DNA of 64,000 bases from a phage. Below the pieces are notes generated by a model, which was not told the origin of the DNA, ran no database searches, and was given only the letters and a program-made list of their open reading frames with translations. Below, one piece after another: positions 23,014 through 53,216 of the stretch. Made by a program: the position numbers and the translations under genes. Location: sequence record PZ452579.1; one strand, written 5' to 3'. Positions within the stretch are counted from its first letter, which is position 1; each line of letters starts with the position of its first letter.

Positions 23014-25227
23014 TTATTTGGCCGCTTCCACGGCCTTCATGAATTTAACGATTTGAGCGACTTGTTCTTTAGAAAGAGTACCACGTCGTCCCATGTAGTC
23101 TGACACAATATGATAATTGGTTTCGAATTCAATAACCATTTTATCATCATTATCGTAAGCATTATCTTTAAGCTTATCGAAAATTTTAGCACACAATTCT
23201 AACTTCCTGTTCAGGTCTCTGTTATCAGCACCTGCGAATCGATTCCATCCCCAACGATTATTTACTGTTGAAAGTTTTGCAAAATCTTTACTTATTTCTT
23301 TGTTCTTAGAGCTAAAATACTTACTAAGGAAGTTAAGCTCTTCATTACGAGTAATATGATTCAAATAAGGCTGTGCTCTACGACTTGGTGATACATACTC
23401 ATCATAATCCACTTTATCAATTAGCGTAATATAGTCATTAATTGATTTTTCGAACAAGCATTCTACTTCACCAAGTTTACGAACTTTCTTAGCAATCTGT
23501 GGACGGACTACAGTGAACTCTTTAATACCTGACAAATCAGCGATGCGGGTCAAGAAATTAGAATCATAGTTCAACCAACCTTTATCTGCGTCAAGACATT
23601 CAGCGTTAGAACGATTACGAATTACAACATAACCTTGAATCTCATCAGCTTCACTCGCTGGAATAAAGAGATCTTCTGATACCCAAACATCGTTTTCATT
23701 CTTAAAGAACCGATGAGCGCTTGGGGATTTAGGACGAGGCTGCGATGAACGTTCTTTAACTTCAATCCATGGTTTAACTAATGCAAGAATTTCAGAGGTC
23801 TTATAAAATTTAAGGCTATCACCAGCGAAAATAACCTTTAATCGTTCCAGAAGTTTCATTGCAACTTCATCTTCCGGGTTAATGAATAATACGCTACTAC
23901 CCAGTCCGGAAGGAACCTTATCAACGAGTGTTGATGCATCCGTGGAAGTCAAAGCATCATTCAGAGCACGCATCATTGGTACTCGGCCTTTCACATCGTC
24001 AATAACAATATCAATATGCTTACGACTAATACCTAGCAGGCTATTAATTGAAATAGTTGCAGACGAGCTTCCGCTTTCACGAATACGACGAAGTCGTGGG
24101 TCTGAAACGATATCGTATACAACACCAAGGTTGCACCATTCGGGACCCATTTTAAACCGTTTGTACAACTCAGAATAAGTTAGCTGTTCTTTAGAATATT
24201 TCAGTGATTCAATATTAGAACCAGCTTTTTCCATGTATTTACGAGCAGAGTAACCAAGAGAATCGATTTCACGGAATACATGACGTGGATATTCACAATC
24301 AATCCATTTCTTAGAATCTTCAGCAAATAATTTTGCATCAATTTCTGCAACACGTTTATGGATATTTGCTACTGTACGTTTATCAAATGACAATGCTTCA
24401 CGAGACGGAGCTACATCTAGTTCACCCATAGGGAATTTAATATAAGCTGTAGTGCATCGCGTCATCATCCATGTTTGTTCTTTAATAACACTTCCGATTG
24501 GATATACAATACCACCATAAACAGCCATGATATTACCACGTTCACCCCATGGAGCTTCCTTGGCTAAATAAACATCATCGAATTCCGGGAAGTATTTGAT
24601 ATCTTTAACACCACGAACTTCTGCAATATCGCCGAGAGGACGCATAACATAAGCAATTTCGGATGCGAACTTTTCAAAATCTTCTGGGTTAACAGGCACA
24701 ACTACTTCAACGCCGGTTCGGTCATCAGGACCCATCTTATCTACGAAGGTTGGCTTAATTTGTGGACCTGTGTCATCTTGGTAGATTACGTAACCACGAA
24801 CTTCACCGTTGTGATAAGACGTAAGGTTAAATGTATCGGTATATGCTAGTGGAGCTTTAGAGCCGAGTCCGAATCCACCAATGAAATCGTTACTCGATGT
24901 TTTAGTTGAAGCAAAATATGAATTATAGATTCCTGGCTCTTCGTCATTACCTCGAATAGTGAAATCACTCATACCAGGACCAAAGTCTCGAACTACAAAA
25001 CGTGGGTCTAAACGACCTGGAGCCTGAACAATAAACTTATCAGTGCAACCATTAAGAATTTGTCCATCGATACAGTTTGTGATTAATTCACGTACACAAG
25101 CCAATTCTTTGTTTGTATAAAGGTCATTAGACAAAATCTTATAAACTTTGCTATTGCCTTGAATAGTGAATGCTGTGCTCTTACCGCCTGAACCAATAAT
25201 CGTTTCTTTAGCCGTTTCAATAATCAT
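23014..25227 (-). CDS. rIIA: rIIA protein
   Basis: 737 aa; MIIETAKETIIGSGGKSTAFTIQGNSKVYKILSNDLYTNK... T4 rIIA pattern. Confidence 0.95.
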   Translation of the reverse strand: MIIETAKETIIGSGGKSTAFTIQGNSKVYKILSNDLYTNKELACVRELITNCIDGQILNGCTDKFIVQAPGRLDPRFVVRDFGPGMSDFTIRGNDEEPGIYNSYFASTKTSSNDFIGGFGLGSKAPLAYTDTFNLTSYHNGEVRGYVIYQDDTGPQIKPTFVDKMGPDDRTGVEVVVPVNPEDFEKFASEIAYVMRPLGDIAEVRGVKDIKYFPEFDDVYLAKEAPWGERGNIMAVYGGIVYPIGSVIKEQTWMMTRCTTAYIKFPMGELDVAPSREALSFDKRTVANIHKRVAEIDAKLFAEDSKKWIDCEYPRHVFREIDSLGYSARKYMEKAGSNIESLKYSKEQLTYSELYKRFKMGPEWCNLGVVYDIVSDPRLRRIRESGSSSATISINSLLGISRKHIDIVIDDVKGRVPMMRALNDALTSTDASTLVDKVPSGLGSSVLFINPEDEVAMKLLERLKVIFAGDSLKFYKTSEILALVKPWIEVKERSSQPRPKSPSAHRFFKNENDVWVSEDLFIPASEADEIQGYVVIRNRSNAECLDADKGWLNYDSNFLTRIADLSGIKEFTVVRPQIAKKVRKLGEVECLFEKSINDYITLIDKVDYDEYVSPSRRAQPYLNHITRNEELNFLSKYFSSKNKEISKDFAKLSTVNNRWGWNRFAGADNRDLNRKLELCAKIFDKLKDNAYDNDDKMVIEFETNYHIVSDYMGRRGTLSKEQVAQIVKFMKAVEAAK

Positions 25228-25239
25228 ATTTTTCTCTCA

Positions 25240-25440
25240 TCACAAGTTACGTTTAAAAATTTCTGCTACTTCAAGAAGTTCTTCTTTAGTAGCTGTATCG
25301 GTTTGTATTTTATATCGAATTTCTTTAAAGCGTTCTTTAAAGGACTCTGCTGATTCGATATCAAAAAATCTTTGGATAAGCCGGAATTCCCGGAGCACTG
25401 CTTTATCAAAAAGTTCCAAGTCCACGTTATATGTTCTCAT
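25240..25440 (-). CDS. hypothetical protein (rIIA.1 position)
   Basis: 66-aa ORF immediately upstream of rIIA. Confidence 0.6.
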   Translation of the reverse strand: MRTYNVDLELFDKAVLREFRLIQRFFDIESAESFKERFKEIRYKIQTDTATKEELLEVAEIFKRNL

Positions 25441-25532
25441 AATATTCTCTTCAGTAGATTCCTAGGGCACTATTACTAAAGACCATATAATCTATCATCT
25501 TATGTGTAATAGTGCCTCAGGCTATTCAGGAT

Positions 25533-26633
25533 TTACGCTGTGAAGATTTTATCCCACATCGCAACAACTGCATCTCGGTTATACTTCTTCCATACTGCTT
25601 CAGCACGTTTAACTCGAGCTTCGTACGTGTCAGTGAATTCTAATACAGCTTTTGTGTAAAGCGCAACTACTTCTTTCTTAGGAGTAGAGGAATCAATTTC
25701 TACACGCACAGTATCTGGGTCGTATTCAAATGTCGCATGAGGATAATCCTTAAAAACTAACTGGATTACAGGGACACCTTTAGAGATGGCTTCAATAGAA
25801 CTATTCTCTACCGTACCTGTGTCAGGACACGTATTAATAAGTGCTTTAGCTGTTTTAAGACGTTCCATGATTTCACTGTGTGGAGCATCAATAATAACAG
25901 GATACTTAGCCGGTGGTGCCCATTTGCTTGGACAATAACCAATACCATTTTCGCCTAGTGCTTTAATCGCTTCAAGAGCAACATCAGTACGACGCATTTT
26001 AGTGTCATAACGTTGTGCACTAATAATCAGATCAGTCGCCGGAAGAACTTCAGGTTTCTCATTCAAACAAATAACCGGATAATCTTCGGCTTCAAACAAC
26101 GGATTTGCTCGCCAATAATCATAATCAATTTTGTCAGTCAGACCTGAAGTCATATGACAATATTTGCGTTCAAATTCACGGAAGGCTTTAGTAGGAGCAT
26201 AACTCTTACCACCATTCTTATGAATTTGAATAGTCTGGTCCCAAATTTGAACAATGCCACGAGATACCGGTTCAAATGGTGTTGCCATAAAATTCTTATG
26301 AACTTTAGAGAGACCTGCGTCTTTAATTGCCTGAACGGTTAGTTTAGTCGGTTCCATAGTAACAACAAAATCGTATTCATGGATGCCGGCTAGTTCAACA
26401 ATCTTACGAGCCATAGTATAACTCATACCTAGACTGAATTTAGTCAGATGACCAACAGGATGATGATTAACTTTCCAATCACCAAATGTGTCATTATCAA
26501 AACCGATATAATCAATATCGGCACCAATAGAAACTAAATATTTCAACACATTTAAATGTACTGCTTCAAGACCACCTTGTACACGGTCAGGATTAAATGG
26601 GACTGCACGAGATGGGATAAACATAACTTTCAT
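25533..26633 (-). CDS. putative DNA-modifying glycosyltransferase (candidate hmC sugar transferase)
   Basis: 366 aa MKVMFIPSRAVPFNPDRVQGGLEAVHLNVLKYL...; sits between rIIA.1 and gene 39 where T4 has gene 60/mobA; GT assignment rests on position and recalled RB69-type literature, not on a visible motif. Confidence 0.55.
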   Translation of the reverse strand: MKVMFIPSRAVPFNPDRVQGGLEAVHLNVLKYLVSIGADIDYIGFDNDTFGDWKVNHHPVGHLTKFSLGMSYTMARKIVELAGIHEYDFVVTMEPTKLTVQAIKDAGLSKVHKNFMATPFEPVSRGIVQIWDQTIQIHKNGGKSYAPTKAFREFERKYCHMTSGLTDKIDYDYWRANPLFEAEDYPVICLNEKPEVLPATDLIISAQRYDTKMRRTDVALEAIKALGENGIGYCPSKWAPPAKYPVIIDAPHSEIMERLKTAKALINTCPDTGTVENSSIEAISKGVPVIQLVFKDYPHATFEYDPDTVRVEIDSSTPKKEVVALYTKAVLEFTDTYEARVKRAEAVWKKYNRDAVVAMWDKIFTA

Positions 26634-26675
26634 AATTAAGCCTTATTAAAATTAAAATGAAGCTCCCGAAGGAGC

Positions 26676-28493
26676 TTAGGACATCCATTCTTTACGAAGT
26701 TCTGAATCATCACCCATCAACATTTCAAAGAGTTCTTTCCAATTTTCAGGAAGTTTAACTACGTCGTACACAGGGTTCTGAATCATTTCACGATATTCTG
26801 ACTTTTCAAGGGAGCCTAATCCCTTGATGTATCGAATACTATGCTTAGGAAGCGTATCTTTAACTTCTTCATACTCAGCTACAGTATAAAACCATTTTTG
26901 AGTTTTGCCAATTTGTGCAATAATTACAGGTGTTTTAACAAAGCGAATACGTCCTTGTTCAAACAATTCAGGCCAATTACTAAAGAAAGCAAGCAAAGCC
27001 GGATAGATACTTCCAAGACCGTCATGATCGGCATCGGTCATAATTGCAATATTACGATAGTTCGTATTCTCTGCCTTTTCACCAAGAATAAGACCCGTGA
27101 TAGCACAGATATCAAAGAGCTCTTTGTTCTTCATCATATCAGCATATGACATACCCCAGCTATTCATCACCTTACCACGTAATGGGAATCCACCGTGTAG
27201 TTCACGGTCACGAACATCAATGAGATAACCAATTGCCGAATCACCTTCTGTTAAGAACAATGTCGTATCTGCATCTTTACCACATTGGTTAGCTTTAATA
27301 TGCTTATGAACCTTAGCTTTAGTTGCCTTTTTAGCTGCTTTAGTTTCTGCAGCCTTTTCTGCCGCCAATTTACGAGCTAATGCGGCTTCAACAATAGGCA
27401 TAATCAAGGCTTCGTTTTTAAGAAGTGCCTGAGCAATTTTCTTAGCATCTAATTGGATATGATTACGAATATCACCATACGTTGACGTTAAACGTTCTTT
27501 AGTCTGAGAATCAAAACGCATGTTGCTCATGTCTCTAATAAACATCAACATTGTGAGACATTCTTTAACACGAGCTTTAGTGACTTCAATACCCTTATAT
27601 TTCTTTTTAATACCGGGCAAAAGATGTTCGCAGATATCATCCATTACACATTCAACATGATGACCACCATTTTTAGTATGGATGTTATTCACATAAGTTA
27701 AATGACGGAAGCCATCTGGTGATGTTGTGAATGCTATAGAGACTTTATCATTTTCTTGAATGATGTTATCTTCACCAAATTGTTTAGCAAATCGTTTAAA
27801 ATTACCATCAACCTTTTTACCATTAAATGTGAACTTGATATCAGGATAAACGACTGCCAATGTTTGAAGTCGGTCTAAAGTAATATCTAAATAAATTTGA
27901 GATAAATTATGCTCTTCAAATGAAGTGAAATCAGGAGTGAAGATTACTTTAGTGCCTTTACCTTTAGATTTCTTAGAAGACCATGATTTGTTTTCCATTC
28001 CGTTTGAACAGTTAACAGTGATTTCATTTTCGCCATCTGACGTGATGCCTGTAAACAACGTAGAGAAGATATTAGTTAAACTACTCCCGACGCCGTTCAT
28101 ACCACCAGTCTTGCGTTCAGAGTCATCACCAAAGTTACCACCGGCCTTTGGAATAGTCCAGGCTGCTACAGGCCCAGGAATTTGTTCACCTGTTTGGTCG
28201 GTAACTAAACCTTGAGGAATACCACGTCCGTTATCTTCCACCGAAACTTGATTATTTTTAATTTGCACATCAATTTTATTTGCAAACTTAAATGACGTAC
28301 GAATAGCTTCATCAACCGAGTTGTCAATAATCTCATCGATTAATTTAACCAGACCAGGAACATATTCAACTTGTTGATATTTACCAAACAAAAAACGCTC
28401 ATGTGCTTCTTTAGCAGAAGAACCAATATACATACCACTACGTTTCTTAATATGTTCTACATCTGATAATACCTTAATTTCATTTTTAATCAT
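26676..28493 (-). CDS. 39: DNA topoisomerase II large subunit, single uninterrupted gene (T4 39 + 60 equivalent, GyrB-like)
   Basis: 605 aa; MIKNEIKVLSDVEHIKKRSGMYIGS... GHKL ATPase plus TOPRIM region in one ORF. Confidence 0.95.
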   Translation of the reverse strand: MIKNEIKVLSDVEHIKKRSGMYIGSSAKEAHERFLFGKYQQVEYVPGLVKLIDEIIDNSVDEAIRTSFKFANKIDVQIKNNQVSVEDNGRGIPQGLVTDQTGEQIPGPVAAWTIPKAGGNFGDDSERKTGGMNGVGSSLTNIFSTLFTGITSDGENEITVNCSNGMENKSWSSKKSKGKGTKVIFTPDFTSFEEHNLSQIYLDITLDRLQTLAVVYPDIKFTFNGKKVDGNFKRFAKQFGEDNIIQENDKVSIAFTTSPDGFRHLTYVNNIHTKNGGHHVECVMDDICEHLLPGIKKKYKGIEVTKARVKECLTMLMFIRDMSNMRFDSQTKERLTSTYGDIRNHIQLDAKKIAQALLKNEALIMPIVEAALARKLAAEKAAETKAAKKATKAKVHKHIKANQCGKDADTTLFLTEGDSAIGYLIDVRDRELHGGFPLRGKVMNSWGMSYADMMKNKELFDICAITGLILGEKAENTNYRNIAIMTDADHDGLGSIYPALLAFFSNWPELFEQGRIRFVKTPVIIAQIGKTQKWFYTVAEYEEVKDTLPKHSIRYIKGLGSLEKSEYREMIQNPVYDVVKLPENWKELFEMLMGDDSELRKEWMS

Positions 28494-46667: not shown

Positions 46668-47216
46668 TTAACGAGCCCATTTGATGATTTCTGTAATCAA
46701 ATCATTACGTTCGCTTGCATTAAATCCTATAACTTTGTTAGCACCATCATGATTAAGTAATTGATACGTTTGGATTTTGTTATGAATTGCAAACTCTTCA
46801 AAATGTGAAATGACTGTATTAAAACCGAATGAAGACAAAGTAATAAGGTCGTCTTCAAAACTTTCAGTCATTTCGTTACGTGTTAAAATAATTGTGAACA
46901 CATCATGGTTTTGGCAAAGACGAATATAATCCTGTTCATAAACGTCAAGAACCGAGTCCGCATCTTGTCGAATACGTCCATAAACCCAGTTACTAATATA
47001 TCCACGGTCTAACAGATAAATCTTAGTAGGGTCTAAATAATTCAACATCGTTTCGAAACAGCCAACTTCGTTTCGAGACTTAACATCGAAACGTCCATCA
47101 ACTGTTCGTTTAGGGAAATCAATCTTTACATATCTTTCACTAATTTCCATTATGTCATTAATGAAAGTTGTTTTACCAGCATTATCCGGGCCATCTACTA
47201 AAATAATTTTAGCCAT
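46668..47216 (-). CDS. P-loop kinase, thymidylate/dNMP-kinase-like
   Basis: 182 aa; Walker A ILVDGPDNAGKTT and DR(G)Y-like LLDRGYIS; occupies the T4 beta-gt position. Confidence 0.6.
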   Translation of the reverse strand: MAKIILVDGPDNAGKTTFINDIMEISERYVKIDFPKRTVDGRFDVKSRNEVGCFETMLNYLDPTKIYLLDRGYISNWVYGRIRQDADSVLDVYEQDYIRLCQNHDVFTIILTRNEMTESFEDDLITLSSFGFNTVISHFEEFAIHNKIQTYQLLNHDGANKVIGFNASERNDLITEIIKWAR

Positions 47217-47217
47217 T

Positions 47218-48117
47218 TTATTCCTCGATTACGACATCTTCGTATTTAGGTATATTATACGGCGAAGAAATTAAAGCATTAAAGTAGATGAACTCACCAA
47301 GACCTGGATGGAATACTTCTTCAGGATTTTCGAAATATTGAATCTTCGGACGTCCTTTAAGAATTTGATAGTACTCAGTTTTAGTCGGTTTAAAAATTCG
47401 AATCAGCGCTTCTTCAGGATACTTATTTCTGTCGAAGCTATTATTTGGATCGGTTATATAAAGCGGTTGACCTAATTGAATTGCACATTCAACCACTTGT
47501 TCAAAACGATAGCATGGGTCACTAATTCGAAATGGATGAAAAATACCATCTAGATGAATAGGAGCCAAATCACCTACAAGACGCTGCATGATGGAAGGAC
47601 GTATAACTTTCTGGGTTATGATAATCTTATTACCATCGGCACCAGCGTTAACCAGCACTTCCTTTTGACGTTTATTCAACACAGTTGTTTGGATTGAACG
47701 ATTAACCGACAACATGTCGGTTTTTAAGAATTCGTCAATATAAAAACGTGGTTTATTAGGGTCTGCGGTGATATTGAAATTGAATTCTACATCAAAAGCG
47801 CCGTCATATCCAGTGATATCTGTGATTAGAAAATCACAATCATAATAAGCAATTAATGAATCAACCACAAATTCATTTTCAGACCAGAAATATTTACGAG
47901 TGTTATACGCGTTATCTTTATACCATAATGGAACAAACTTAAATTCTGGGAAAAGACGTTCACATTCTTTAATATCAGATGCATTACGTGGATATGTAAT
48001 CACATCACCTGGATTAGCACGGTGCAAATGAAGTTGGAAGTTGCCATCCTTAAGGATAGCATACTGTCCAGTTTCATAAGACCGCATACTCAAGATAGGT
48101 ACGCGGAAAATAGCCAT
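47218..48117 (-). CDS. hypothetical protein, translationally coupled to gp42-like gene
   Basis: 299 aa; ATG overlaps the gp42-like stop (TAATG); no recognisable motif. Confidence 0.6.
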   Translation of the reverse strand: MAIFRVPILSMRSYETGQYAILKDGNFQLHLHRANPGDVITYPRNASDIKECERLFPEFKFVPLWYKDNAYNTRKYFWSENEFVVDSLIAYYDCDFLITDITGYDGAFDVEFNFNITADPNKPRFYIDEFLKTDMLSVNRSIQTTVLNKRQKEVLVNAGADGNKIIITQKVIRPSIMQRLVGDLAPIHLDGIFHPFRISDPCYRFEQVVECAIQLGQPLYITDPNNSFDRNKYPEEALIRIFKPTKTEYYQILKGRPKIQYFENPEEVFHPGLGEFIYFNALISSPYNIPKYEDVVIEE

Positions 48118-48833
48118 TAGTCAAGGAATCCTTTAACATAATCAAAATCACGTTCAAACACATGGGCACTTACCATGGTATGAGTATAATCACCAACTTC
48201 TACACCACATTCGTTAGCGATATAATGAAGTAATTTTCCTTGGAGATAAAAATCCAACTGCATAACAACAGCACAGTTCTGAGAACGCATATGACAGTGG
48301 GTATAAAGCTTACCATCGCGAATATAATAAGTCACTGAGTCAGTACATGGATATTCAAGTGTTTCGTCCGAATCAAGCAAAGCCTGATCAGAACTTTCTA
48401 GAATTTGGAACACAACTCTTCGAGAGTTAGGCTTCTCTTTAAGTTCTTTTAGAAGAGCTGGTAATTGGGCTGCAATGCGAGGACCATAGAAAGTGTTGAA
48501 GTTCGCAGGCAAAGCATCTGATTTTGGTTTAGAAATAAATTTAGCGACATTAGGATATGCCTTAAACGCTTCTTCTGCATCAGTACCACCAGAAATCATA
48601 AATTTCCAGAAGTCTTCGGCATATTCATAAGAGATGCGGTTAATACGTGGGTCGGTCATTTTGAATGATGATGGAGTGTCAACAACTACTGTCATAGACC
48701 CAATTTCATTACAACGTCCAATACGAGAATCAGTTACGAATTCCGGGTTTTCTAAAATTTCACGATTGACTGCTTTAAATGCGGCTTGAAAATCTGCGGC
48801 TTTGATATATTTCATTGTGTTATGTTTTCCCAT
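48117..48833 (-). CDS. 42: thymidylate-synthase-family pyrimidine hydroxymethylase (divergent gp42-like dCMP hydroxymethylase)
   Basis: 238 aa; TS-fold signatures NSRRVVFQ, EYPCTDS, HMRSQNCAVVMQLDF, GVEVGDYTHTMVSAHVF; SD GAGGT upstream. Confidence 0.7.
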   Translation of the reverse strand: MGKHNTMKYIKAADFQAAFKAVNREILENPEFVTDSRIGRCNEIGSMTVVVDTPSSFKMTDPRINRISYEYAEDFWKFMISGGTDAEEAFKAYPNVAKFISKPKSDALPANFNTFYGPRIAAQLPALLKELKEKPNSRRVVFQILESSDQALLDSDETLEYPCTDSVTYYIRDGKLYTHCHMRSQNCAVVMQLDFYLQGKLLHYIANECGVEVGDYTHTMVSAHVFERDFDYVKGFLD

Positions 48834-48874
48834 GTTTACCTCAATACAGTTATTATATACTCAATTCATAAAGC

Positions 48875-49114
48875 TTATTTGAATTTCTTGGCAATGTTGA
48901 TATAACGTAAAGCTTCAGCATCGATACTTCCAAGAACACTATGAAGAAATGCATCAGCGTAATATTCTAGTTGAACAGGTTCTTTAATCACTTTAGCCGC
49001 TTTGGTTTCAAACAGGCCCATAAGGGCCTTTTTAAGAATTTGTTCGTTAGTGTTCAGTTTCATAGTCAAAATCTCTTCATTAAGTTGGTGGTTAAAAGTT
49101 TTTCTAGAAATCAT
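48875..49114 (-). CDS. hypothetical protein
   Basis: 79-aa ORF; ATGA overlap with upstream stop. Confidence 0.45.
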   Translation of the reverse strand: MISRKTFNHQLNEEILTMKLNTNEQILKKALMGLFETKAAKVIKEPVQLEYYADAFLHSVLGSIDAEALRYINIAKKFK

Positions 49115-50286
49115 TCTGGGTACCTCAAAGCGTCGTCAGAGTTAGTTATATCAATAATAGATATAGAATTTTCTGATAACCCGTTTTTAGATAACTGACG
49201 TTTATAATATCTTTCACAATATGTACACGTCGTCCCGCAGATTTCATTAGCACAATCGAAATCTGGATGTCTGAACCACCTTTTTTCTAAAAAGCCATCT
49301 AACAAAGAGGTTTCAATATTTACTGTATGTGAAAACTCGGTCTCATTTTCAAGAGTGAAAATAGTCTCTAAAGGCTTCCACAGTTCTAACAAATTACCTT
49401 CAAACTTTTCAGAAGCGTATGCTTCAAGAACTTTCAAAATGTAGTCTGTGCTACCTGTACGTCCTGAAACTTTGAATTGAGTGATACCGATATCATTATA
49501 AAGTTTCAAATCTTGAGGACGAACAAAACGAGTTCTCAACCAGTTAAATGGGTCTGTATCACGAGCTTTAATACAGTGCTGCATTGGATATCCGTTTAAG
49601 GATTTAGCATCATCAGCTGTAACATCAGTACTATGGAAAATATAGCAAGAGTCACGATAGCTACAATGTGTTGTATACCCTTTACCAGCATTAGAACAGA
49701 ACTCATTTACAAGAACTTCAAATATTATATTGTTCTTATTGCAAAACTCTGCTGCACGCTTCAGGAAAGAAACTGAACGGTTCTTATGAATTCCGCAACA
49801 GACCTTTTTGATATTATATTGGTCATGCAAGTATTTGATTTGAGTTACAGCATCGACATGTAGAATTGTTGAAACTTCAATCTCAATGTCTTTATTGACT
49901 TCACGAACAATTTCCATAACAACAGGGTTAGCGATAGTAATACGCCATACGCCTATTGACCAAAGATACTGAACATAATCCTGAATAGCTTTCTTCTTCC
50001 ACTCAACTAGTTCTCTTTTTGAACCAGGATTTATCGTGTTGAGCGTATAGTTAAAGCAAATACCTAATTCGTTACAACGTTTAACGTAATCTTCTAACAT
50101 CTTTTTGTCAACGTCAGGAAGCCTAAAATCAGGTCTGGCTGCTACAAAAGCCATTTCTCTTGTAGAGCCGTATACTTCGTTTATCAAGCTATTAGGATAA
50201 GTTTTATTGAGCTCTACGATTTTATCAAGAAGAGCTAAATCAAAATTCGTTCCGATTTTAAAAGTATTCATTTTTTTGCATCTCAC
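49111..50286 (-). CDS. hypothetical Cys-rich protein, candidate modification enzyme
   Basis: 391 aa; C-terminal cluster CANEICGTTCTYCERYY (Cx4Cx3Cx2C), possible metal or Fe-S site. Confidence 0.6.
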   Translation of the reverse strand: MRCKKMNTFKIGTNFDLALLDKIVELNKTYPNSLINEVYGSTREMAFVAARPDFRLPDVDKKMLEDYVKRCNELGICFNYTLNTINPGSKRELVEWKKKAIQDYVQYLWSIGVWRITIANPVVMEIVREVNKDIEIEVSTILHVDAVTQIKYLHDQYNIKKVCCGIHKNRSVSFLKRAAEFCNKNNIIFEVLVNEFCSNAGKGYTTHCSYRDSCYIFHSTDVTADDAKSLNGYPMQHCIKARDTDPFNWLRTRFVRPQDLKLYNDIGITQFKVSGRTGSTDYILKVLEAYASEKFEGNLLELWKPLETIFTLENETEFSHTVNIETSLLDGFLEKRWFRHPDFDCANEICGTTCTYCERYYKRQLSKNGLSENSISIIDITNSDDALRYPE

Positions 50287-50327
50287 GTTAATTGATGCGA
50301 TGGTTTTTGCAGGTCTTACTTAAATTA

Positions 50328-50729
50328 TTATAGATTCGGTTTATATGATTTAAATGTTTCGAATTCGCCTTTATTCATAAGAGCTTTGAATTCGTCAGGA
50401 CGCATAGCTTTGTCGTCGATAATCCAATCATATACTGGTTTATGTGTTAGCAAATTATGGTACTTTAAGCCAATGTTTGCCAAGTTCTGGATCAGACTTG
50501 GGAGAATGTCAATTGCTATACGACCAGGACCTACTGACTTCATACCGCGAGCAGTGTAAAGCGTTATGGTATGCCCTGCATCATACAGGGCATTAATGGC
50601 AGACACCATTTCGACGTCTGGTTTGAAGTTCACGTAATCACGATTGTTATTCCACTCTGTTATACAATCATCGACATCAAAACAAAGATTAAGCATGTTT
50701 TCTACACGGTGCATTAGATTCGTTCCCAT
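50328..50729 (-). CDS. HAD-superfamily phosphatase-like protein
   Basis: 133 aa; motif I LCFDVDDCIT (DxDxT); small KdsC-like size. Confidence 0.6.
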   Translation of the reverse strand: MGTNLMHRVENMLNLCFDVDDCITEWNNNRDYVNFKPDVEMVSAINALYDAGHTITLYTARGMKSVGPGRIAIDILPSLIQNLANIGLKYHNLLTHKPVYDWIIDDKAMRPDEFKALMNKGEFETFKSYKPNL

Positions 50730-52399
50730 TGATGAGTGATATCGCCACCGATTGGACGATAGGAAACACCAGTTTCTTTATCAGTTAGTACCCATTTACC
50801 AGGATTTTTTGTAATCAGAGTAGCCGTTACAGGTTCTGCTACGTCATAACTAATAGAGCCGTCTTGAAGTACACGGCCCATATTACGTAATTGCTTAGTC
50901 AGAAGTTCCATACCTTTATAATATGCGGCTACCGCTTTAAGTGGATTATTCTTGAAATAACCACCTAATGCAATCCAGATAATTGCCACTGCCAAATGAT
51001 GATACTCGTTAAACGAACTCATCTTTCCATATTTGTAAACTAATGGATTGATGTTAATAGTCACATTACAAGTTGTTTCATCAATAGTAAACTGTCCCCA
51101 GGTCGGATTAGCGTTGAATTCATCATAACCTGAAACAGCATAAAGCACTTTAGCTTCATCGTACAATTTTGGCCCGTAAATCTTGGTTTCGCCAAAATAT
51201 CCACGAGGGTCGATAAACTTGACTTCGCCGTTATCAGTAATCATAGTATTACTGAAGTTCGGGTCACCATGAATAACAGAGTACTGTCCCTGAGAACGGT
51301 TATGATAACGAATAAGGTGTTCTAAAGCTTGTTTCAGCATTGGCTTCAGACGTCCAATCTTAGTGTAGTTCACATGTGTGATTTTACCAAATGAATCAAT
51401 CAATGGTTGAATGCTTTCACAACGATCAATAACTTTCGTATAGAATTCTTTAGTGAAATCACGACGAACAGTTTCAGGACTTACAAAATAAGTGTCTGTG
51501 CTGAATTTCAGTGCATCTAAAATTGCATCAACAATTTGTGGACGAGCAAGACTTGATTTGGATTTAATATATTCAAATGCCGGCTTACCTTTAATGCGTT
51601 CCATTTCAAAGTTATTTTCATTAACAGAAACTAACTGAGGAACTGAATCTGATTTCACTTTAAGATACCATGAAATCTCATCTTTCTGAAGAGCTCGGCC
51701 CTGTTCGGTTAATGCGAATTTAGTTACAGTTTCTTCACCAATTTCAACTGCATTAAAACTACGATTAAGTTCACGAACTTCATGAGCTTTTTCAAGTTTA
51801 GGCATATCACCTAAATCAATTAGATTCATAAGCTCTGATTTATTGAATGCACTGCCGTAAAGGAATTCTACGAAATCACGTCCTTTGCAGTATTCGTGAA
51901 TTTCCTCATCAGTAGAACCCATGTAGAATTCCCAGTCTTTGAACTGATAAATTCCTACAACATTACCACCTGTTGAACCTACGTTAGTGATATTTTCACC
52001 GTCGAAATTATATCGACATTCGTCACCCTTAACATAGATTGCGTTAACATTCCAAGACCATGAACCAAAATCAGGAATAATATCACACCAGTTAACAATT
52101 ACATTATGGCCGTCTAAATCTTTGTGTAATTTAGCAAGAGCATAAGCAGAACCATACGCTTCATCAACTGTACGAATAGTCACATTGAACCCTTCTTGCT
52201 CACAATAAGCTCGAACAGTTTCAGCAAATTTTGAATGAACTACTACAATAATTTCATCTGCGCCAAGGTCAGAATAAATTGTATACAAATTGCTCAGAAT
52301 AGTGTCTTGTTTATAGTTCACAAGAACTTTTGGAATATGGTGAGTAATTGGATATAAACGAGTTGCCAGTCCAGCACCAAGAATAACAGCTTTTTTCAT
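50714..52399 (-). CDS. bifunctional sugar-1-phosphate nucleotidyltransferase / APH-like (anomeric) sugar kinase
   Basis: 561 aa; N-terminal AVILGAGLATRLYPIT (RmlA-like G-x-G-x-R-L); C-terminal VIHGDPNFSNTMI and FIDPRGYFGE (APH/choline-kinase Brenner and DFG-like motifs). Confidence 0.7.
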   Translation of the reverse strand: MKKAVILGAGLATRLYPITHHIPKVLVNYKQDTILSNLYTIYSDLGADEIIVVVHSKFAETVRAYCEQEGFNVTIRTVDEAYGSAYALAKLHKDLDGHNVIVNWCDIIPDFGSWSWNVNAIYVKGDECRYNFDGENITNVGSTGGNVVGIYQFKDWEFYMGSTDEEIHEYCKGRDFVEFLYGSAFNKSELMNLIDLGDMPKLEKAHEVRELNRSFNAVEIGEETVTKFALTEQGRALQKDEISWYLKVKSDSVPQLVSVNENNFEMERIKGKPAFEYIKSKSSLARPQIVDAILDALKFSTDTYFVSPETVRRDFTKEFYTKVIDRCESIQPLIDSFGKITHVNYTKIGRLKPMLKQALEHLIRYHNRSQGQYSVIHGDPNFSNTMITDNGEVKFIDPRGYFGETKIYGPKLYDEAKVLYAVSGYDEFNANPTWGQFTIDETTCNVTININPLVYKYGKMSSFNEYHHLAVAIIWIALGGYFKNNPLKAVAAYYKGMELLTKQLRNMGRVLQDGSISYDVAEPVTATLITKNPGKWVLTDKETGVSYRPIGGDITHQWERI

Positions 52400-52440
52400 G
52401 TTGAAGTCCTCATTGGTAAGTAGGAGTATTGTACACTATT

Positions 52441-52584
52441 CTAGTTAAAGCATTCATACTTTGCTTGTAGTCCAATCATAATCCATCCAATTACAAGTGT
52501 TGGAATCATTACTGGAGCCGTTAAGCTCCAGTAGATAGTCATGACAAGCATCAATAGTAAAAGTCCTATTGTTATTGCTTTCAT
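52441..52584 (-). CDS. small membrane protein (not in ORF track)
   Basis: 47 aa MKAITIGLLLLMLVMTIYWSLTAPVMIPTLVIGWIMIGLQAKYECFN; ATGA overlap with SIS gene stop. Confidence 0.45.
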   Translation of the reverse strand: MKAITIGLLLLMLVMTIYWSLTAPVMIPTLVIGWIMIGLQAKYECFN

Positions 52585-53216
52585 TGTTCGCCTCGTAACA
52601 TGGCACCTAGTGCACCGCCTGGATGGAACTTAAGGAAATCATTAGAGGTAAATCCGCGTTCAGACGAAAGGTTGATAGCGAACGTATCGATAAGCGCTAA
52701 CAACAATGTAGTAGACATTGTCGGAGCTAAAGAGTTCTCGTCAACTTCTACCGCGATACCGGTACAGAACGTATAATCAAAAAGAGCTTCGTATTCTTGT
52801 GGAATGTCAGGGTTACAATGTAACAGAATCTGTTTAACCTGAGGACGAATCATACGAAGATGTTTAGCAACACCTATCATTTCTTCAGTCTTACCAGAAC
52901 GACTGATGTGAATCAACACATCATTAGGTGCAATAAATCCTGCGTCACCATGAGAATAATGCCCAGTGTTCAAATACATGCTAGGAATACCTAGTGAAGC
53001 AAAAGTCTCGGAAGCTTTAGTTGCGATATTAGCATTCTTACCAACACCTGTAATAATTACACGACTTTCATAATTACTCAGTCCAGGGCGACGAAGAGTT
53101 TCAAGAATAGCATTATATCGGGCAGGGTTTTGACTAATTACTTTAGCCATAGTGGCAAGAGATGAAGCTTGTTTTACGATTGCGTCAATAGCGATAGTGA
53201 TTGGTGTAGTTTTCAT
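52581..53216 (-). CDS. SIS-domain sugar-phosphate isomerase, KdsD-like arabinose-5-phosphate isomerase
   Basis: 211 aa; GVGKNANIATKASETFASLG, SHGDAGFI, ISRSGKTEE, LAPTMSTT, FHPGGALG, closely paralleling E. coli KdsD SIS-domain motifs; no CBS domains. Confidence 0.8.
   Translation of the reverse strand: MKTTPITIAIDAIVKQASSLATMAKVISQNPARYNAILETLRRPGLSNYESRVIITGVGKNANIATKASETFASLGIPSMYLNTGHYSHGDAGFIAPNDVLIHISRSGKTEEMIGVAKHLRMIRPQVKQILLHCNPDIPQEYEALFDYTFCTGIAVEVDENSLAPTMSTTLLLALIDTFAINLSSERGFTSNDFLKFHPGGALGAMLRGEQ

Follow-up and report, generated by a model that had tools for sequence, protein, structure and literature searches.

A predicted GT-B glycosyltransferase between rIIA.1 and gene 39 of a Mosigvirus phage and its probable role as second DNA arabinosyltransferase

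In phage T4, the genes rIIA, rIIA.1, 60, 60.1, mobA and 39 follow each other in this order. At the corresponding place, a stretch of phage DNA of 64,000 nucleotides (PZ452579.1; the whole stretch is referred to as the window) carries one ATG-to-stop open reading frame for a 366-aa protein (25533..26633, minus strand), flanked by rIIA.1 on one side and by the 3' end of gene 39 on the other. Which enzyme does this gene encode, and at which step of DNA modification does it act? The preliminary description of the locus had stated that the frame has no counterpart in T4 and that gene 39 is uninterrupted. Both statements were right: T4 carries 60, 60.1 and mobA at this site, and gene 39 of the window is a single, unsplit 605-aa frame (26676..28493, minus strand) for the large subunit of topoisomerase II with GyrB, HATPase and Toprim domains. 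On the other side lie rIIA.1 (25240..25440, minus strand; Pfam T4_RIIA1, 2e-30) and rIIA (23014..25227, minus strand), so that all neighbours share the strand of the 366-aa gene. The same placement of a gene of this family has been described (PMC13390438).

The 1.6-kb region around the gene matched 164 phage records with 90-99% nucleotide identity, the best match being phage JM10 (98.8%), and the window is a Mosigvirus (RB69-like) sequence. In comparison to four orthologs, the frame exhibited a dN/dS of 0.03-0.10 (dS 0.07-0.29); it is a real gene under strong purifying selection. The base composition was uninformative with respect to horizontal transfer, with a GC content of 39.1% in the frame and 37.5% in the window. 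Shigella phage JK45 contains a full-length gene of the family together with a 136-aa partial tandem duplicate that comprises the 3' part and the spacer (L008, 684-1094). This is either a true duplication or an assembly artefact close to the start of the record.

The 366-aa protein affiliated over its entire length (residues 1-366 of 366) with PHROG 8302, a group of "unknown function" (4e-223), and was present in 156 phage records with 95-99.7% identity. Pfam contained no match at E<=1 and NCBIfam none. When all PDB chains were searched with phmmer (E<=10), the sole match was the protein of the entries 9IQZ ("phage HY126 glycosyltransferase", apo) and 9IR0 (with UDP), both released on 2025-07-16 and both with the HY126 glycosyltransferase as lone protein; the depositors' name for 9IQZ includes "GT subfamily 4-like N-terminal domain". 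The crystallised protein differs from the window protein in 4 of the 366 residues (N56T, G164A, I231V, S315F), none of which is located at a column that is invariant in an 11-sequence alignment of the family. An AlphaFold2 model built on an 11-sequence alignment (pLDDT 91.1, pTM 0.87) revealed an alternation of strands and helices in two halves. In Foldseek searches the model superimposed on 9IQZ with a TM score of 0.97 and on 9IR0 with 0.93 (99% identity to both). At E<=0.001 the PDB contained 249 matches, of which the best 50 were all GT-B-fold proteins. The next structural matches were the tetrahydrobiopterin glucosyltransferase (BGluT), BshA, PimA, MshA and WaaG, GT-B enzymes for UDP- or GDP-sugars, with TM scores of 0.6-0.66 and sequence identities of 10-14%. 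Among the best 50 matches to viral models (BFVD), the nearest ones outside the family were glycosyltransferases of Rhizobium phages. The gene had been called GT-like in the preliminary description, and structure prediction with Foldseek, suggested there as a check, bore this out: as modelled, the frame encodes a GT-B glycosyltransferase with two Rossmann-like domains, near-identical to the HY126 crystal structure.

The usual nucleotide-sugar contacts of GT4 enzymes are a GG loop, an R-x5-R/K pair and a Glu pair. In the 11-sequence alignment of the 366-aa family, the invariant residues were G20-G21, E94, T118-P119, R125, Q207-R208, D210, R214, N267-T268-C269, G273-T274, E276, E281-A282, G286, H299-A300-T301 and E303. 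We take the G20-G21 loop, R208/R214 and the segment E276...E281-A-x3-G-x-P to be equivalent in position to the nucleotide-sugar binding sites of GT4 enzymes, E281 having been aligned with their EA..G.P.. helix by eye and not by structural superposition. The invariant pair E276 and E281 has the spacing E-x4-E, without the canonical E-x7-E, and a G is present at the -8 position. A match to the HMMs of CAZy GT4 or of Pfam Glycos_transf_1 plus Glyco_trans_4 was looked for and not found. A profile of the 366-aa family did not retrieve any other GT from the PDB sequences, and the family is an orphan by sequence, recognisable through its fold only.

The RB69 ortholog of the protein is ORF003c/gp3 (NP_861693.1), which was proposed in 2018 as candidate arabinosyltransferase on the basis of HMM/HHpred and Phyre2 analyses (366 residues, same locus; Thomas et al. 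2018, PMC6024577). The same study also flagged the module ORF53_52c/ORF055c between DNA polymerase and uvsX (PMC6024577). In the records of the BASEL-collection phages ChristianSchoenbein and AlbertHofmann, the 366-aa gene is labelled "putative hmC-arabinosyltransferase". The cytosine of RB69 was subsequently identified as beta-D-Araf-(1-3)-alpha-D-Araf-5-hydroxy-dC (Lee et al. 2026, PMC13326640), and both RB69 and phage NP possess 5-hydroxycytosine with an ether-linked arabinose (PMC13326640, PMC13390438). The view of the preliminary description that hmC is the acceptor base is at variance with these reports. For RB69, a proposal of 2025/26 assigns the first transfer to gp46:47 and designates gp3 "beta-arabinosyltransferase 2" (PMC13326640). 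Mono- and di-arabinosylated forms occurred in phage NP in a published ratio of about 1:4, and Bas46 and Bas47 are doubly arabinosylated (PMC12923530). Deletion of the "arabinosyltransferase Aat" of Bas46 resulted in a viable phage that was sensitised to a defence system, as summarised in a later article (PMC13216743, citing Mahler 2025).

In the window, the 366-aa gene co-occurs with a module for the synthesis of 5-hydroxy-dCMP and UDP-arabinose. This base- and donor-synthesis module is located at 46668..53216 on the minus strand (Pfam; functions according to PMC13326640) and comprises, in this order, a 182-aa kinase-like protein, a 299-aa GT, a thymidylate-synthase homolog, a U32-like protein, a HAD-like protein of 133 aa, a 561-aa NTP-transferase/kinase and a 211-aa SIS isomerase. 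The homolog of thymidylate synthase represents the 5-hydroxy-dCMP synthase, by which the base is made (PMC13326640), and its sequence is near-identical to PDB 9IQC/9IR2/9IQU. The module begins about 20 kb from the 366-aa gene, and the earlier notion of a system split across two loci therefore holds, with the 366-aa GT belonging to the same DNA-sugar system. The U32-peptidase-like gene of the Mosigvirus module (49111-50286) was missing from the five Acinetobacter phage modules that were inspected and thus probably does not provide a core step of arabinosylation.

The preliminary description had also claimed that no glucosyltransferase homolog is visible at the T4 beta-gt position, which proved wrong in substance. 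The 299-aa frame of the module, the ortholog of RB69 gp46:47 (47218..48117, minus strand), is located between the gene 42 homolog and uvsX and thus at the T4 beta-gt position. Its AlphaFold2 model (pLDDT 94.2, 33-sequence alignment) has a GT-B fold and matched MshA, UDP-GlcNAc 2-epimerases and HepE in Foldseek searches (E 3e-6 to 1e-4), with 9IR0 at rank 32; Pfam and NCBIfam yielded no match for this protein. A paralogous origin of the two GTs was considered and discarded, as the families of 299 and 366 aa are not detectably related in sequence (hhalign probability 0.4%, no BLASTP match).

With two candidate transferases and two sugars on the base, the order of the steps was assessed from the distribution of the families. 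The 299-aa family was detected in 349 phage records of Escherichia, Acinetobacter, Klebsiella, Serratia, Enterobacter, Proteus, Yersinia and other phages and formed at least 137 protein clusters. The 366-aa family, in comparison, was limited to 212-215 phage records, even at E<=1, all from two groups: coliphages of the Mosigvirus type, each with a single copy, and Acinetobacter phages, which have two; the record sets of the two families were compared by counts per genus only. Wider relatives of the 366-aa family comprised 5 clusters in 5.8 billion proteins, and 10 representatives were found at E<1e-10 in 1.84 billion proteins. The 7 loci in IMG/VR were all of known isolate types. The far wider occurrence of the 299-aa family makes it the likelier base-proximal transferase. 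That the 366-aa frame is the best candidate for transferring the sugar to the base is not supported, given the GT-B protein of the module itself and its presence in 349 versus 212-215 records.

The reverse order, in which the 366-aa enzyme attaches the first, base-proximal arabinose and the 299-aa protein serves as nucleotide-sugar enzyme, as second transferase or in another role, corresponds to the original proposal for RB69 ORF003c (PMC6024577), and it is the 366-aa type of GT that was crystallised from HY126. A further argument comes from phage Thanatos, whose 300-aa protein TH1_063 was reported to act as UDP-xylose pyrophosphorylase in vitro (PMC12838424). Judged from its similar length and GT-like fold, TH1_063 seems to belong to the 299-aa family, and this report clouds the assignment of the 299-aa protein as first transferase. 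Moreover, a reconstitution of the first step was not found in the accessible literature, and purified GTs of phage DLP3 were inactive on 5hoC-DNA when applied singly (PMC13326640). About 135 phage records, however, combine the arabinose module with the 299-aa GT but yielded no hit to the 366-aa family, even at a threshold of E<=1, and these phages would be left without a transferase if the 366-aa enzyme acted first. Of these phages, at least Thanatos and Serratia phage LC53 were reported to be arabinosylated. Together with the GT-B fold of the 299-aa protein and the copy numbers described below, these observations render the reverse order unlikely.

In the loci of five Acinetobacter phages, the genes were arranged in one orientation as SIS - NTP-transferase/kinase - HAD - TS - GT299 - kinase - GT366 - GT366 - gp41, and this contiguity physically ties the 366-aa family to the pathway. 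The two copies of Acinetobacter phage Lazarus, gp072 and gp073 (L001, 7001-9296), were 41-43% identical to the window protein over the full length and 57% identical to each other. Their closer mutual relationship indicates that the duplication took place in the lineage of these phages, so that RB69 gp3 has no strict ortholog among the two copies. In phage Acj9, one copy is split in two (L014, 8846-9951). In relation to the reported sugar counts, the copies of the 366-aa family are always one fewer than the sugars. Thanatos has no copy and is mono-arabinosylated, with a single GT (PMC13326640), Mosigvirus phages have one copy and RB69, NP and Bas46/47 possess di-arabinosylated DNA (PMC13326640, PMC13390438, PMC12923530), and the Acinetobacter-type phage DLP3 is counted with two copies and is tri-arabinosylated (PMC13326640). 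This argument from copy number and phyletic distribution is correlational, and the membership of DLP3 gp76/gp77 in the family is assumed from gene position and numbering, the two genes occupying the positions of the two 366-aa-family genes in related Acinetobacter phages. Distribution and copy number in relation to sugar counts support the published proposal that the 299-aa GT acts first and the 366-aa GT second. In our assessment, the 366-aa enzyme is quite likely the second, chain-extending DNA arabinofuranosyltransferase and the 299-aa GT the base-proximal one. The fold, the near-identity to the UDP complex, the selection and the co-occurrence were computed here, the chemistry of base and sugars was taken from the literature, and the order of the two steps is what we infer.

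The experiments with DLP3 also bear on the question whether the two steps are separable at all. DLP3 gp76 and gp77 together placed a third arabinose on RB69 DNA from UDP-Araf; both proteins were required and single GTs were inactive (PMC13326640). By analogy, the 299-aa and 366-aa GTs might act only as a complex. Gp76 and gp77 are, however, presumably paralogs within one family and not a pair of the 299/366 type, and many phages have the 299-aa GT without the 366-aa family. The two genes of Mosigvirus are separated by 20 kb and differ in their transcription context, and the crystals 9IQZ/9IR0 contain the 366-aa type of protein alone. An obligate complex is therefore considered very unlikely. 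Even less probable, to the point of being barely credible, is an activity of the 366-aa enzyme on a target other than DNA, such as a glycan or protein of the host or of the phage, with an accidental neighbourhood to rIIA. The family was found only in phages with the cytosine-arabinosylation module and is part of this operon in Acinetobacter phages, and its likely DLP3 homologs act on DNA (PMC13326640). What speaks for such an activity is that the structural neighbours of the enzyme work on lipids, small molecules and polysaccharides, and that a direct assay of the 366-aa protein or of its RB69 ortholog was not found in the accessible literature.

Concerning the expression of the gene, the preliminary description had reported an 11-bp inverted repeat in an upstream region (25455..25510) and had suggested that this region may give the gene a separate regulation. 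The repeat itself is real, with perfect 11-bp arms at 25466-25476 and 25506-25516 which can be extended to 16 nt (25461-25476/25506-25521); the range given before clips the second arm. The location was wrong. Since the 366-aa gene is on the minus strand, the stem-loop (25461..25521, minus strand) lies downstream, 3' of the stop (25533) and before the start of rIIA.1 (25440). The RNA fold had a free energy of -28.6 kcal/mol (z = -4.4), which was equalled by 1 of 200 shuffled sequences. The 105-nt spacer with the stem-loop (25436-25540) exhibited 0-3 differences in phages in which the adjacent 366-aa frame has a dS of 0.22-0.29, indicating that the spacer is constrained, and the variant of phage AV114 turns the 16-nt stem perfect. 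The stem-loop can be described as a conserved element of RNA or DNA located between the 366-aa gene and rIIA.1. It has no T-run, no Rfam match and no sigma-70-like match on the minus strand, and its arm sequence has no further copy in the window. A MotA box or late-promoter motif was not found by eye. A function as promoter of the 366-aa gene was ruled out by the 3' position and the lack of a sigma-70-like match on the minus strand, and with the hairpin downstream and no own promoter found, the proposed separate regulation by an upstream hairpin fell away.

The true upstream region of the gene has a length of 42 nt (26634..26675), and no sigma-70-like promoter was found in it on the minus strand. 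Terminator scan and RNA folding detected a UUCG hairpin (26660..26677, minus strand) that resembles a terminator and has a U-rich tail. It overlaps the stop codon of gene 39, and several records of related phages label it "terminator". With no own promoter found and a terminator-like hairpin upstream, the 366-aa gene is probably transcribed by read-through from gene 39 past its terminator.

The junction of the 366-aa gene and gene 39 varies among relatives. The phages phiE142, AV114, p000v and phi25-307 contain a 265-aa NUMOD3 homing endonuclease between the two genes (phiE142: L002, 4027-4824). The Tequatrovirus phages CJY920 and fPS-90, the latter a Yersinia phage (L003, 2499-3396), have no GT gene. 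In fPS-90, the NUMOD3 endonuclease adjoins a 103-nt block that is identical to window positions 26585-26687 and consists of codons 1-16 of the GT gene, the 42-nt terminator spacer and the final 12 nt of gene 39. The block also occurs in CJY920. It resembles the trace of a homing event between genera in which flanking DNA was co-converted, and it lies at the mobA site of T4.

In the favoured pathway, with the 299-aa GT as first and the 366-aa enzyme as second transferase, the donor UDP-arabinofuranose would be produced by the module 20 kb distant. The 299-aa GT would transfer an alpha-arabinofuranose onto the 5-hydroxyl of 5-hydroxycytosine, and the 366-aa enzyme, as a soluble GT-B enzyme of GT4-like type, would add a second arabinofuranose onto the first sugar on the phage DNA. 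The second linkage would be beta-1,3, as reported for RB69. The expected product is the di-arabinosylated cytosine which prevails in Mosigvirus DNA and confers a stronger protection against host nucleases.

With UDP-Araf as the single donor for two linkages that differ in anomeric configuration, one of the GTs must invert and the other retain. The nearest structural neighbours of the 366-aa enzyme are retaining GT4 enzymes, whereas published analyses give a beta configuration for the second linkage and an alpha configuration for the first. We tentatively consider, with more doubt than confidence, that the 366-aa enzyme inverts on a scaffold resembling retaining GT4 enzymes and uses a DNA-borne sugar as acceptor, and that the stem-loop and the terminator could set the ratio of mono- to di-arabinosylated cytosine. 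The lack of the E-x7-E spacing and the invariant Glu94 at the tip of a strand in the N-domain could fit a switch to inversion. If true, the inversion would be an unusual mechanistic switch within a GT4-like scaffold, and the enzyme would be a rare glycosyltransferase with a DNA-attached sugar as acceptor.

The 366-aa gene was identified in 2018, crystallised in 2025 and reassigned to the second step in 2025/26. With a near-identical crystal structure already available the finding is real but not new, and the window adds no new biology. The system is of interest in that phages with arabinosylated cytosine are protected against restriction enzymes, some CRISPR systems and DNA glycosylases. Which host defences are effective depends on the number of sugars, and this is relevant to phage therapy with Mosigvirus phages and to their sequencing or engineering. 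The annotation has a gap here: no Pfam or NCBIfam model matches the 366-aa protein, and PHROG 8302 is listed with "unknown function" despite a structure and published assignments. Most of about 210 records name the protein "hypothetical protein", and some carry the mislabels "ATP-binding protein" or "DNA alpha-glucosyltransferase".

Among the known systems, RB69 gp3 and the HY126 GT agree with the window protein in length (366 aa), in the position between rIIA.1 and gene 39 and in the partner module. They show no difference of substance, the window being another Mosigvirus isolate. Lazarus gp072/gp073 have the same invariant residues as the window protein, and the DLP3 pair acts on arabinosylated 5hoC DNA with UDP-Araf (PMC13326640). 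Acinetobacter phages differ from Mosigvirus in having two tandem copies contiguous with the module and three sugars, whereas Mosigvirus has one copy at a distance of 20 kb.

The alpha- and beta-glucosyltransferases of T4 are, like the 366-aa enzyme, GT-B proteins with a UDP-sugar donor that serve to modify a C5-borne hydroxyl on the cytosine of phage DNA and counteract restriction. Sequence homology of T4 AGT or BGT to the 366-aa protein was not detected with phmmer among all PDB chains (E<=10), and neither enzyme was among the best 50 Foldseek matches of the model in the PDB or in BFVD; structures of T4 GTs are present in the PDB, e.g. 1XV5 (cited in PMC6024577). The T4 enzymes attach glucose to 5-hydroxymethylcytosine, whereas the system of the 366-aa enzyme employs arabinofuranose and, according to the literature, 5-hydroxycytosine, with a sugar as the probable acceptor. 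With the bacterial GT4 enzymes PimA, MshA, BshA, WaaG and the tetrahydrobiopterin glucosyltransferase, the 366-aa protein has the GT-B architecture of two Rossmann domains in common, from which it is set apart by a sequence identity of 10-14%, the E-x4-E pair and a predicted DNA acceptor.
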